From: Escherichia phage Seurat
Sequence record: NC_027378.1
Length of the DNA: 56,776 bases
Strand: one strand, 5' to 3'
Below the pieces are notes generated by a model, which saw only the letters and a program-made list of their open reading frames with translations, did not search any database and was not told the origin of the DNA. Positions 41,806-52,051 of the stretch are shown piece after piece (position 1 is the stretch's first letter; each line of letters begins with the position of its first letter). The position numbers and the translations under genes are program-made.

Positions 41806-41847
41806 TTCATAAAGAATTTTATATTGAAGTTATGTTGATCGCAAGGA

Positions 41848-41880
41848 ACAAAAAAGCCCAGGCATAAGGATTCCTGGGCT
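41848..41880 (-). terminator. intrinsic terminator
   Basis: AGCCCAGG-aatccttatg-CCTGGGCT followed by TTTTTT on the minus strand. Confidence 0.6.
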
Positions 41881-42192
41881 CTCTTGATTGTCGGATAGCT
41901 TACTTTGACTGCCGTCTTCGTCTACCCTGGCCTACTTGTACAGCCTCGCCAAAGGCTGGTGACGGTTTGGTACATCTGGCGCCGTCTCGTTAAACATCGT
42001 TTACATCGTTCAGTAAGTTGCGGGTTTACCCTGTCCGCTCCAGGAAGCCCAGCGAAAGTAGTTGCTGTAAGGAGGTACAGCTACCGCTTTCAAGGGCTTG
42101 AGTTAAGCATCGTTCACTAAGTTAATGTTGTTAAATTGTTAAACCTCGTTAACTGTGGTTATCTTAAAGGATGCAGTCTTGAATGGCAAGCT

Positions 42193-42510
42193 TCAATTTT
42201 GCGCGGTTCCCTTTGCCGCTTTTGGTGCTAAAGTACCGTCGTCTAACATCAACTCAAAACCTGTTACTTGATCGGTTGGAACAATAGGGTAATTCATAAT
42301 AGCCATGTGGATACGATTCCCTCCGTCACATTCATCGATGTATTCATTACCCCAATAGTATAAATGCCCATCTCTTCGAATATCCATTGCTGTTGGGAAA
42401 TCTACAAGAATTCTTTTGATTTCTTTTCGTCCTTCTTTATGTAGATTAGTTTCAATACGGATAAGCTCCGCATAAATTGCTTCACAGATAGTGTTTACAA
42501 TACTCATCAT
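42193..42510 (-). CDS. hypothetical protein
   Basis: 105 aa. Confidence 0.4.
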   Translation of the reverse strand: MMSIVNTICEAIYAELIRIETNLHKEGRKEIKRILVDFPTAMDIRRDGHLYYWGNEYIDECDGGNRIHMAIMNYPIVPTDQVTGFELMLDDGTLAPKAAKGTAQN

Positions 42511-42704
42511 TTACCCCTTAAGTTTTGAATCATTCTATCACAGGCAGCTTTTACAGAAGAGTTTTGCCAGTCTTCCTCAATTTGTGAAGGTTCTTCAGGT
42601 GAATAAGCAGCACTAATCAAGCACTGATTATAACCTTCAATATAAGCCTGTTTTGCGGTATCTACTATTGATTGTAAAGCGATATTGAATAATTGTTCAG
42701 ACAT
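42507..42704 (-). CDS. hypothetical small protein
   Basis: Start reset to MSEQLFNIALQ... with RBS GAGGTG; the upstream extension in the track is unlikely. Confidence 0.4.
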   Translation of the reverse strand: MSEQLFNIALQSIVDTAKQAYIEGYNQCLISAAYSPEEPSQIEEDWQNSSVKAACDRMIQNLRGK

Positions 42705-42712
42705 TTTACACC

Positions 42713-42787
42713 TCACAAAATATACATAAACCAGAAATAACCAGCTACGAAAATAGCACCCGCAAATAATTTTAAAATCTCGAACAT
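42713..42787 (-). CDS. hydrophobic micro-protein (24 aa), not in the ORF track
   Basis: MFEILKLFAGAIFVAGYFWFMYIL preceded by RBS GGAGGG at 6 nt spacing. Confidence 0.4.
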   Translation of the reverse strand: MFEILKLFAGAIFVAGYFWFMYIL

Positions 42788-42945
42788 TGTTCCCTCCGTT
42801 AACTTTATGCTGTAAGTATAGCAGGACTTGCGATGTATACAACAACTTTAGACTTGAAATACATCTATAAAATAGCACGATTTGCCTTTACCTCTGATCC
42901 GTCTAGCTGTACTATTAACCCATAAACAGAGCGGAGGATTACAAA

Positions 42946-43170
42946 ATGGTCATGCTGAATAAAGTATATAGCACAATGAGCGCGGATTATAAAGTTGTAC
43001 GTCACCCGCGTACTGGTAAATTTGAAGCATATATCCGTCCAATGGGTGAAGGTTGGATGTATTACGGTACTTATGACGACGCTGAGCAAGCTTATGAAGA
43101 AGCGGAAAGTGCGGCGGAAGCATCCGAAATTATGGCAAGGTACGACATCGATGATTACTATCTTAACTAA
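42946..43170 (+). CDS. small acidic protein on the opposite strand within the leftward block
   Basis: 74 aa; RBS GGAGG; own terminator downstream. Confidence 0.5.
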   Translation: MVMLNKVYSTMSADYKVVRHPRTGKFEAYIRPMGEGWMYYGTYDDAEQAYEEAESAAEASEIMARYDIDDYYLN

Positions 43171-43174
43171 TAAT

Positions 43175-43199
43175 AAAGGGCCGAAAGGCCCTTTATTTA
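43175..43199. terminator. bidirectional intrinsic terminator
   Basis: AAAGGGCC-gaaa-GGCCCTTT followed by TTTATTTAT on plus, T-rich on minus. Confidence 0.6.
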
Positions 43200-45539
43200 T
43201 TCCTCTTCACCTAAGTTTGCCATAATTCCTTCAACATCTTGCGTAATGCGCCAAGCTGCCCCAGTAAATCCCAGTTTAATAGTCTCCTCCCGTGTTACCG
43301 GAACAAGTGCACCCATAGCAACCATTTCCTTGATTGTAGACTCGATTGCAGCGGACAATCCGTGATGATAGTTTTTAAACGCGGACTTACTTGCAAGACG
43401 CGTAGTAATATCACCCCGCGTGATAATACCTTCTTTGCGCAAATCTACACGTTTAACTTTGACCCAGTCTTTAGTTAGATAATTCACACAGACCTGACAC
43501 ATAGTACGGATACGAGCTTCATCGTTAGTCCCGATACCGCCGCTATGCCATTCCTTCATAATAATGTCCTGTCCATGTCGCACAAAGTCCAAAGCCCATT
43601 GCACATGATATGTCTGTACCACCGGATTGATCCAGTTTTCCCCAACTGCTAACAGGGCGGATAGACGTAACACCTTCAGGTGAGCACGGTTCCAGGGCTG
43701 ACGGATTGCTTCGTCTTTGGTTGCGTTAATATTACGGTCACATTCGTCGTTAAACTGATCACATAATGCTTCCGCTTCTGGACTAAACTGCACTTCAATA
43801 CTTTGATGCTTTGCCATTGCGACTAAGGTGTGGTTAACAAGATGGCACACCATATCACGCAAATGCTGATCCATTGTAGTCTGCTGGTTCTTGTTTAAAG
43901 GTGGTCGATCACCTTCATAGCGGACAACATGGAAACGGGATAAGAATCCATCCTCCATCATTTCACGGGTTAACGCTTCAAAAAACGTGTCCGGTGTTGT
44001 TTCGCCCATGATGCTATAGGCCACACCTTGTTGAGCTTCCGTATTATTAGCCTTATCAGAATAAGACATACCACCAACAATAGACATCTGACCGGACTTT
44101 TGATAAACATCGGTAAGATCATTCTTGAAGCTTTGCATCGGTGAACCTGCTGGCGCCGTAGCCATTGCTTTAATAATCTTACCAAACTCACCGTTCAAGT
44201 TGATAAAAGATTGTTTGTCTGCAAAAGATTTACGCAGTGCGGAGCCGGAAGCGCATCGGTCAAATGATACAAAGCTATGAATCTGCGGAAACGGTTCCTG
44301 AAGCTGGCTAACTATATTAGATAGACCACTGTTCAACGTTTCTTTACCAACACCAGAACGAGCAATAAGGACAAAATATCCATTAAGACCGGATTGAGGA
44401 ATCTGCCAAACCTTCCCGCATACGCCAGCCATAAATCCTAGTGCTGTCACAATAGAAATTTCTTTCACTGGTCGGACGGATGCCTTGTAGATGTACTTCG
44501 CAAGCTCCCCAGCAAGTCCCGGCGGCCAGTCAATGGCGGTTGCATCAATAGACGTACTTTCTGCAACTACGGTCTGCCCCTGTGTTGTTTCAACAGTTAC
44601 GGGCATTTCCGCTACCTGTTGCATTGCACTGTGTGCCGCTTGCATACGGGCAGCATAATCCCGCGCCAGCGCCGCTACGTTTTCCTGGGCAATGCGCTCA
44701 CGCTCCATGCGACCGCGACACATACGCAAGCAACGGTCAATATGAACATTGTTCTTATTAGCCTTCTCACGTTTGCCCAGTGCGCTATAACGGAACAGAC
44801 GACGACATTGCTCATTACTTTCCGTGTAAAATGCATACATAGAAATAAGGGCAAGGTCTGCTTCAGACTGGGAAGGGAATCCCATTTCAACCCATTCACC
44901 ATTGAATAGGCGTGCATACTTATCTCCGTTGTCCGCTTCAAGTGCACGCTGGTGAATAGTTGCATCGTCTTCTACCGGATCTTTTTCTACCAGTTCAATT
45001 TCATATGTCTTGCGCTGAAGATCAATTTCATTCACAAGCATAGTAAGATAATGATCGCGTTCGGCAACTGGTTTGTTATAGACAGGATTACCCGTGCAGA
45101 TAATAAAACGCTCCTGACTATAAACTTCGACACCATCACGTCGGCGACCTTTACCGATGTTTCCTCTTAACCACAGGTGAACGCCCAAGCCTGAGCGACT
45201 TACTTCGGTGTAAGTGTCGAACGCAGTCATGATCTGTTCGAAGCGACGCAATTGCTCCGGCGTAGTGTGCTTCTTGGGGTCCGGTTCATTGGTTGCGTTC
45301 TTCACATCCAGGTCGATGCAGGTGAACGGGTCTTGTGCAGTAAGCACGAAGCCAATATAAGGTTTATTGAAATGAGCGGCGCAACCTTTGGCAGCTTCAA
45401 ACGTCATAAGCATATCCGGATCGGTAACGTCCGCCGCCATCAAACGTCCAATATCGTTATCCCATACGAGCGGCTTTTTGTCCGTATCGGCGACAGCCCA
45501 TTGTGGGAAAGCTTTAATTTCAGCGGGAAACAGTTCCAT
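43197..45539 (-). CDS. DNA primase-polymerase (AEP-type) fused to a C-terminal helicase/NTPase
   Basis: N-terminal FTCIDLDV and SGLGVHLW primase motifs; PriCT-like SEADLALISMYAFYTE; Walker A LIARSGVGKET. Confidence 0.75.
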   Translation of the reverse strand: MELFPAEIKAFPQWAVADTDKKPLVWDNDIGRLMAADVTDPDMLMTFEAAKGCAAHFNKPYIGFVLTAQDPFTCIDLDVKNATNEPDPKKHTTPEQLRRFEQIMTAFDTYTEVSRSGLGVHLWLRGNIGKGRRRDGVEVYSQERFIICTGNPVYNKPVAERDHYLTMLVNEIDLQRKTYEIELVEKDPVEDDATIHQRALEADNGDKYARLFNGEWVEMGFPSQSEADLALISMYAFYTESNEQCRRLFRYSALGKREKANKNNVHIDRCLRMCRGRMERERIAQENVAALARDYAARMQAAHSAMQQVAEMPVTVETTQGQTVVAESTSIDATAIDWPPGLAGELAKYIYKASVRPVKEISIVTALGFMAGVCGKVWQIPQSGLNGYFVLIARSGVGKETLNSGLSNIVSQLQEPFPQIHSFVSFDRCASGSALRKSFADKQSFINLNGEFGKIIKAMATAPAGSPMQSFKNDLTDVYQKSGQMSIVGGMSYSDKANNTEAQQGVAYSIMGETTPDTFFEALTREMMEDGFLSRFHVVRYEGDRPPLNKNQQTTMDQHLRDMVCHLVNHTLVAMAKHQSIEVQFSPEAEALCDQFNDECDRNINATKDEAIRQPWNRAHLKVLRLSALLAVGENWINPVVQTYHVQWALDFVRHGQDIIMKEWHSGGIGTNDEARIRTMCQVCVNYLTKDWVKVKRVDLRKEGIITRGDITTRLASKSAFKNYHHGLSAAIESTIKEMVAMGALVPVTREETIKLGFTGAAWRITQDVEGIMANLGEEE

Positions 45540-51681: not shown

Positions 51682-51978
51682 ATGCTGTATTTAGGAATGG
51701 ACGAAACTGGACACGCGATTCCTTCCGTTAACAAGGAGACGCAAGTATTTACCGACTATTACGGGTCTGCTGTCCCTGTTGAGCCCTGGGCTAACTTTAT
51801 CGCTGTAGACGCAGACGGTAAAGTACATTGTTATGACGCCAAACCTTCTTGCTATGAATCTGGTAAGCAATGGATGCTTGGCGTATACGGTTTGCATGTT
51901 CGCTACTGCGGCGAAGTTGACATTGAAGGTGTGGACTGGCGCGATACGTTGAAGGAGATTAAAGATGTCCGCGGCTGA
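51682..51978 (+). CDS. small acidic protein, paralogous family member
   Basis: VEPWANFIAVDADGKVHCYDAKPS...GVDWRDTLKEI; RBS GGAGG. Confidence 0.5.
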   Translation: MLYLGMDETGHAIPSVNKETQVFTDYYGSAVPVEPWANFIAVDADGKVHCYDAKPSCYESGKQWMLGVYGLHVRYCGEVDIEGVDWRDTLKEIKDVRG

Positions 51979-52051
51979 AGTTACGACATTTATAATAGCT
52001 TTTGCTGTTGCTTTATTCCTTATAGCTAAGTTAGATTTAATGATGGGATAG
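51965..52051 (+). CDS. hydrophobic micro-protein (28 aa), not in the ORF track
   Basis: MSAAEVTTFIIAFAVALFLIAKLDLMMG; RBS AGGAG; overlaps the stop of the previous gene. Confidence 0.4.
   Translation: MSAAEVTTFIIAFAVALFLIAKLDLMMG

Follow-up and report, generated by a model that had tools for sequence, protein, structure and literature searches.

A conserved 24-codon gene for a predicted membrane micro-protein ahead of a variable gene slot in Seuratvirus phages

The window analysed here, the whole 56,776-nt stretch of DNA, comes from a Seuratvirus (Queuovirinae) coliphage and carries a 24-codon gene that is very probably a genuine, translated phage gene. Our preferred reading, to which we give a probability of about 0.6 as a whole, is that this micro-gene encodes an early micro-protein which would act on a host membrane component as a single inner-membrane helix, N-terminus in and C-terminus out, by packing against another helix. 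The evidence for this reading comes from the strict conservation of the reading frame and its translation signals, from the composition of the peptide, from the position of the gene at the head of a leftward transcription unit with an exchangeable second gene, and from the transfer of the segment that carries it into a different phage family. The coordinates of the features discussed below are collected in Table 1.

Table 1. Features around the micro-gene, in window coordinates.
Feature	Position	Strand	Remarks
24-codon micro-gene	42713..42787	minus	ATG at 42787, TGA at 42715-42713; from the sequence and the ORF list
Shine-Dalgarno sequence (SD) of the micro-gene, GGAGGG	42792..42797	minus	4 nt (AACA) from the ATG
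Ribosome-binding site (RBS) of the next gene, GAGGTG	42709..42714	minus	overlaps the TGA of the micro-gene
Second cistron, 65 aa, PHROG 36709	42507..42704	minus	AVU36_gp61 in CAjan
123-aa "extension" ORF	GTG 42878..42507	minus	other frame; from the mechanical ORF list
Putative sigma-70 promoter	42815..42842	minus	extended -10 TGCTATACT (42823-42815), weak -35 TTGTAT (42842-42837)
Direct repeat GCAAnTCnTGCTAT, second copy	42818-42831	minus	overlaps the -10
Direct repeat GCAAnTCnTGCTAT, upstream copy	42872..42885	minus	repeat D2; 54-nt spacing
74-aa gene, PHROG 22269	42946..43170	plus	divergent; shares the 158-bp intergenic region 42788-42945
Palindromic bidirectional intrinsic terminator	43172..43197	.	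annotated on both strands in SA126VB and SA80RD
Primase/helicase gene	43197-45539	minus	upstream of the micro-gene; ends at the palindromic terminator

Reading frame, translation signals and conservation

The micro-gene reads ATG TTC GAG ... TTG TGA and its product is MFEILKLFAGAIFVAGYFWFMYIL (24 aa). The initial annotation had proposed an ORF of this length without naming a strand, and the frame is found exactly where it was placed, on the minus strand; the ORF list contains no in-frame start codon further upstream of 42787. The translation signals, as first described, were partly misplaced. The GGAGGG sequence is indeed present, but the spacing of 6 nt that had been claimed is obtained only when counting from GGAG (the GGAGG core lies 5 nt from the ATG), and the 8 nt said to separate the end of the frame from the RBS of the next gene are in fact the distance from the stop codon to the ATG of that gene (42704). 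The RBS itself overlaps the stop codon, which is part of TGAGGTGTAAAATG. In diverged lineages the SD is kept with a different sequence, namely AAGGAG in Salmonella phage STP-SP5 and in metagenome contig L054 and AAGAGG in Hafnia phage yong3, and with any of these three motifs the distance to the ATG stays within 4-8 nt across all lineages. A six-frame count of the window gives 326 ATG ORFs of 20-40 aa, of which only two combine high hydrophobicity (GRAVY >= 1.5) with a strong SD (match of at least 5 nt), the micro-gene being one of them; this combination is rarer than chance would give. Judging from these signals, the best reading is that the product would be efficiently or strongly translated.

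Conservation was assessed in phage records, viral contigs and metagenomes. A tblastn search with the 24 residues recovered an intact copy in 36 of the 36 phage records carrying the region, and scans with degenerate patterns added 3 IMG/VR and 10 metagenome contigs with an intact frame. Looser degenerate DNA patterns gave chance matches at 11 of 14 loci in IMG/VR and at 31 of 41 in the metagenome set, and filtering these by ORF geometry left Seuratvirus-like contigs only. The 29 loci that were compared hold 22 nucleotide alleles and 12 protein alleles, each exactly 24 codons long, with no indel or internal stop in the micro-ORF at any of them. The 1.9 kb around the micro-gene is 98.5% identical to CAjan, and four diverged lineages, with amino-acid identities to the window of 54-67%, extend the comparison: the peptides are MFE(I/L)LKLFAGAIFVAGYFWFMYIL in the CAjan type, MYEFVKIFAGVIFVAVYFWFMYFL in contig L054, MFEFVKIFASVIFIALYFWLMYWV in STP-SP5 and MSAFVNIFGGSIFVAVYFWVMYFL in yong3. 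Ten residues are invariant across the four lineages (M1, F8, I12, F13, A15, Y17, F18, W19, M21 and Y22), residue 21 being T or F in some isolates.

The pattern of substitution is that of a coding sequence. Within the close clade, 16 of the 23 variable sites fall on codon position 3 (binomial p = 4e-4), and the variant codons comprise 15 synonymous versus 7 nonsynonymous changes when nonsynonymous sites are about four times as numerous (~55.5 against ~13.5 synonymous sites); pairwise dN/dS ranges from 0.11 to 0.51. Compared with yong3, the ORF is 75% identical and free of gaps, whereas the intergenic DNA beside it keeps 50% identity and needs 10 gaps, and across the lineage comparisons intergenic DNA shows 6-10 gaps. 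The RNA that begins at the predicted transcription start and covers the ORF has no more stable fold than shuffled sequences do (z = +1.41), and there is no Rfam or tRNA match in the whole window, results on which a reading as an RNA element was rejected. Together, the third-position bias, the gap-free ORF, the unstructured RNA and the lack of an Rfam match exclude a structured RNA and support protein coding. We thus regard it as well supported, by comparison of related genomes, that the micro-gene is protein-coding and under purifying selection: frame and length are kept, synonymous changes are in excess, and a conserved SD stands at a suitable spacing. Loss of the frame in relatives had been named at the outset as an observation that would speak against the gene; instead, every relative found keeps the frame, and the substitutions are of the coding type. 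A literature search found no transcriptome or translation (Ribo-seq) data for Seuratvirus or Queuovirinae.

The description of the gene as unannotated is nearly correct. Among the 16 distinct relatives' records whose annotation was examined, one, that of Cronobacter phage CSP1, contains it as a 24-aa hypothetical protein (CSP1_063, ARW59095.1 / UniRef100_A0AB33CJ70). This is the same gene with one substitution (A11I), has no function or analysis attached to it, and is the sole member of its own cluster in a collection of 15 billion proteins. Gene callers with length cut-offs miss a gene of 24 codons; Prodigal, for example, is not known to call genes shorter than 90 nt, and the micro-gene measures 75 nt. 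Callers that skip it sometimes invent a false N-terminal extension of its neighbour instead, an error which spreads through dozens of Seuratvirus records. In the window, such an extension is represented by the 123-aa ORF of Table 1, which prolongs the 65-aa gene upstream across both the micro-ORF and the promoter region. The initial annotation had called it implausible, a view borne out by the fact that its frame is not conserved, being closed or absent in STP-SP5 and yong3. A long out-of-frame ORF is annotated in KS_A8, SeppeHuegi and KurtStettler (there fused to another slot gene), and a 30-aa plus-strand ORF across the promoter region (42833-42925) is annotated in GottfriedDienst, SA80RD, KS_S4 and Dru_SM1. 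Both the plus-strand ORF and the minus-strand ORF at 42507-42878 are probable mis-annotations in these relatives.

Elsewhere in the window, a second candidate micro-protein gene was noted at 51965-52051 on the plus strand. It would encode 28 aa (MSAAEVTTFIIAFAVALFLIAKLDLMMG, GRAVY 1.73), has GAAGGAGAT 6 nt upstream, overlaps the end of a 98-aa gene by 14 nt and is followed 3 nt after its stop by the next gene. Its DNA is conserved in 19 Seuratvirus records; a tblastn search with the 28-aa sequence gave no match, probably owing to low-complexity masking.

Control region, variable slot and transfer between phages

The palindromic terminator closes the primase operon, and the micro-gene therefore starts a new transcription unit. 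We infer a promoter before it, comprising an extended -10 and a weak -35 separated by a 16-nt spacer; the resulting 5' UTR would be about 20-25 nt long, with transcription predicted to begin near 42808, some 7 nt past TATACT. The exact TGCTATACT is unique within the window, and the -10 position reads TGCTATAAT in STP-SP5 and TGTATAAT in yong3. A simple promoter scanner run on the window did not report the site because its -35 is weak. Each of the two copies of GCAAnTCnTGCTAT is followed by a -10-like element (TGCTATACT or TGCTATTTT), and the upstream GTGCTAT core is invariant in 7 of 7 aligned relatives, yong3 included. The repeats may represent tandem promoters or an operator. A role as a promoter or operator motif shared across the window was considered and rejected, given that GCAAnTCnTGCTAT does not occur elsewhere in the window above chance.

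The leftward unit runs from the micro-ORF through the 65-aa gene, a 105-aa gene and a RusA-like resolvase gene to a dUTPase gene, while the divergent 74-aa gene is read from the other side of the same intergenic region. The 74-aa product shows a sub-threshold match to an AP2 domain (E = 0.006) and weakly resembles HNH endonucleases in their DNA-binding part; it may be a small protein that binds DNA and regulates the control region which its gene shares with the micro-gene. Two further observations concern the neighbourhood. Between the 105-aa and RusA-like resolvase genes lie about 390 nt without a minus-strand gene (41806-42192), with no Rfam or tRNA match; at this place relatives carry insertions (among them a homing endonuclease in Skure) or have small opposite-strand ORFs annotated, and in Providencia phage PSTCR4 a gap of 640 nt precedes the homologous resolvase gene. 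The primase/helicase shares 99.5-99.9% identity with that of slur01, SLUR75 and KS_S4 but only about 77% with that of several other Seuratviruses, in which the flanking DNA is 93-97% identical to the window; a divergent primase between similar flanks indicates mosaic exchange of the primase gene.

The second position of the unit is a slot of variable content. Among relatives, it holds at least 8 unrelated genes, each starting 7-9 nt past the stop of the micro-ORF: besides the 65-aa protein of the window, we found 135-aa, 71-aa, 85-aa and 84-aa proteins, two small MarR-like wHTH proteins and an HNH_3 homing endonuclease (slot examined at 42507-42704 of the window and at loci L004-L017, L009-L011, L036, L045 and L054-L069). 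About 14 records lose DNA homology immediately behind the micro-ORF. The micro-ORF is thus shown by these comparisons to be independent of the downstream gene, and marks the fixed 5' side of a slot in which genes are exchanged. In one record, SA126VB (L012, 801-1231), a decayed HNH endonuclease gene runs in frame into the last 29 residues of the 65-aa protein, and the last four codons of the SA126VB micro-ORF are of the STP-SP5 type (FFYWL, TAG); the junction resembles a scar left by homing, with a co-conversion tract.

The distribution of the micro-gene is restricted. At the syntenic site, an equivalent micro-ORF is absent in PSTCR4 (Craquatrovirus) and in Nonagvirus JenP2, the next-nearest phages (primase identity 52% and 33%, respectively), so that the wider phage group can evidently do without the micro-gene. 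No match was found at the DNA level in 5,426 complete E. coli genomes, nor at the protein level by tblastn in PLSDB plasmids, and by these searches the micro-protein family is a narrow one. Its carriers include five phages of the BASEL collection (GottfriedDienst, KurtStettler, SeppeHuegi, WildeMaa and VogelGryff), all of which infect E. coli K-12, a circumstance that makes experiments simple.

Beyond Seuratviruses, a Seuratvirus-like segment of 280 bp, about 93% identical, is present in two Felix-O1-like Salmonella myophages, vB_SalM_SPJ41 (Felixounavirus; ON868915, ~41.2-41.6 kb; L016 / L072) and SWJM-02 (OQ594353). It begins about 100 nt before the ATG, takes in the whole micro-ORF and breaks off some 100 nt into the 71-aa slot gene, leaving that gene truncated at 53 aa. 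In these myophages, the segment lies between an HNH endonuclease / 127-aa gene and the DNA ligase gene, upstream of the latter. A 57-bp remnant of the 5' end of the 74-aa gene is found in these Felix-O1-like phages on the far side of the 127-aa gene. The segment shows that the predicted promoter and the micro-ORF have moved between phage families. As these two are the cargo that remained intact, the peptide's independence of any Seuratvirus-specific partner is suggested. With an identity of about 93% the transfer is recent, and it could reflect neutral hitch-hiking.

Membrane prediction, proposed function and alternatives

Several properties of the peptide point to the membrane. Its N-terminal six residues carry one acidic and one basic side chain, and residues 7-24 form an uninterrupted stretch of 18 uncharged residues, as long as the at least 18 apolar residues in a row expected of a single-pass segment, with a favourable predicted insertion energy. 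Summed over these residues, the Hessa energy is about -0.5 kcal/mol for the window, -1.6 for STP-SP5 and 0.0 for yong3, and GRAVY lies at 1.69-1.77 in these three lineages. All four lineages keep the 18 consecutive apolar residues, K6 on their N-terminal side and an aromatic YFWxMY belt on their C-terminal side. From these features, we consider the micro-protein probably membrane-inserted, with a predicted N-in/C-out single-pass topology in the inner membrane. Conservation is not confined to one face of the helix (helical moment, permutation p = 0.33), and the idea of a single conserved face as the binding interface was dropped on this test. Searches of PHROGs, Pfam, NCBIfam, PADLOC and PDB sequences with three diverged peptides returned no meaningful match at E <= 10, and on present comparisons the predicted product joins the known membrane micro-proteins of phages and bacteria as a new member without a family.

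We propose that the micro-gene would be the first cistron of an early leftward operon driven by the host RNA polymerase. The MFEILK N-terminus of its product would stay in the cytoplasm, the 18-residue apolar helix LFAGAIFVAGYFWFMYIL would span the inner membrane, and the invariant Y17-F18-W19...Y22 cluster would sit at the periplasmic interface. Early in infection, the peptide would pack helix to helix against a host inner-membrane protein, and the candidate outcomes are that superinfecting phages would be excluded, a membrane-bound host function blocked, or a defence effector blocked. A host inner-membrane target is the most likely one because the gene is predicted to be expressed early and strongly, its residues are strictly conserved and it is portable from one phage family to another, and we would put the chance that the peptide acts by binding such a protein at somewhat under even. 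Given that the stop lies inside the next RBS, translation of the micro-ORF would also deliver ribosomes to whichever gene fills the slot, and this coupling is likely to be a second role of the micro-gene.

A bolder extension of this proposal, which we find rather doubtful, treats promoter and micro-gene as a self-contained, portable cassette for a host-directed membrane effector (e.g., for superinfection exclusion or anti-defence) that would work in unrelated phage backbones, with the conserved 3' end of the micro-gene, where the stop overlaps the SD, serving as a recombination joint that plugs new early genes into an expressed slot.

Hydrophobic peptides of this kind might also act by depolarising the inner membrane, and a toxin-like product (a type I toxin or mini-holin) that oligomerises there and contributes to host shut-off or lysis timing has to be weighed against binding to a host protein. 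The size and composition do resemble those of Ibs, ShoB and TisB-type toxins, and the small residues A9, G10 and A15 could allow self-packing. The mRNAs of type I toxins, however, are translationally locked, whereas the SD of the micro-gene is strong and exposed in an unstructured leader. The peptide lacks a charged or polar tail, no toxin family in PADLOC, Pfam or NCBIfam matched it at E <= 10, and no Rfam antitoxin sRNA, or any other Rfam family, was found anywhere in the window; a novel antisense RNA to the micro-gene may exist. Position argues in the same direction, as the gene stands first in an early operon of replication genes and not in a lysis cassette, and a phage that depends on an energised host would suffer from early depolarisation left unchecked. 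We therefore think a toxin-like action unlikely.

Alternatively, the act of translation rather than the peptide could be what matters, the micro-ORF being a translational leader (uORF) that works by ribosome loading, arrest or membrane tethering while its peptide has no target. Such a leader would account well for the geometry of the junction, since the stop falls within the SD of the following gene, whose start is 7-9 nt off in all lineages despite sequence differences, and for the role of the ORF as fixed 5' anchor of a slot that takes so many different genes; the clustering of conserved residues in the C-terminal half is also reminiscent of arrest peptides. Pure coupling, on the other hand, needs neither a fixed length of 24 codons nor 10 invariant residues nor a dN/dS of 0.1-0.5, and junctions in which a stop overlaps an SD are generic in phage operons. 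As for arrest, the arrest peptides known so far each control a single dedicated gene downstream, whereas here that gene changes among relatives, and no stable RNA structure sequesters the downstream SD (the same z = +1.41). Coupling is, moreover, compatible with a functional peptide and already forms part of our preferred explanation. A leader without a target is, in our view, a quite improbable account.

Least of all do we believe that the stretch is not a gene and owes its conservation to a DNA or RNA element close to the promoter, or that it is the 5' part of its neighbour (the 123-aa extension): although it follows immediately on a conserved control region, hydrophobic ORFs arise by chance in U-rich sequence and the long out-of-frame ORF is annotated in its place in three GenBank records, variation is concentrated at third positions of the micro-ORF frame, four lineages show zero indels in it as against the gaps of intergenic DNA, the extension frame is closed in two lineages and the gene downstream is replaceable, and neither an Rfam match nor a stable fold speaks for an element.

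Comparison with known systems

Phage micro-proteins are largely uncharted, and those few that have been looked into, PfsE among them, proved to be precise inhibitors of host membrane machines. The micro-gene is a clean experimental candidate: it is tiny, strictly conserved within one genus, first in a putative early operon, and recently transferred together with its predicted promoter.

Three groups of known small proteins offer points of comparison. The first are type I toxins; those of the Ibs, ShoB and TisB type have 19-30 aa and a single apolar helix (review PMC12648545). The micro-protein shares with the type I toxins (Ibs, ShoB, TisB, Hok/Ldr) its length and hydrophobic single-helix composition, but differs from them in that it matches no family and has no antisense RNA family, that its strong SD lies open, and that its gene is placed in an early operon. 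The second are small membrane proteins of fewer than 50 aa, for instance E. coli YohP and YkgR, many of which bind larger membrane proteins (PMC12648545). Here, the likeness consists in a single apolar helix, in being missed by gene callers, and in being recognisable by a strong SD and a conserved frame; there is no homology, and the micro-gene is phage-borne and absent, at the DNA level, from the E. coli genomes searched above. The third is PfsE (PA0721) of the Pseudomonas filamentous phage Pf4, an inner-membrane protein of 30 aa with its N-terminus in, whose conserved aromatic motif YAWGW lies at residues 16-20 in its second half; PfsE binds PilC, a host protein of the inner membrane, and excludes superinfection (PMC8764522). 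The phage that encodes PfsE is temperate and filamentous and infects another host, whereas the micro-gene described here comes from virulent siphophages of Enterobacteria. The resemblance, one in kind only and drawn from features rather than from sequence homology, is that of two phage micro-proteins of 30 and 24 aa, the one with YAWGW at residues 16-20 and the other with YFWxMY at residues 17-22.
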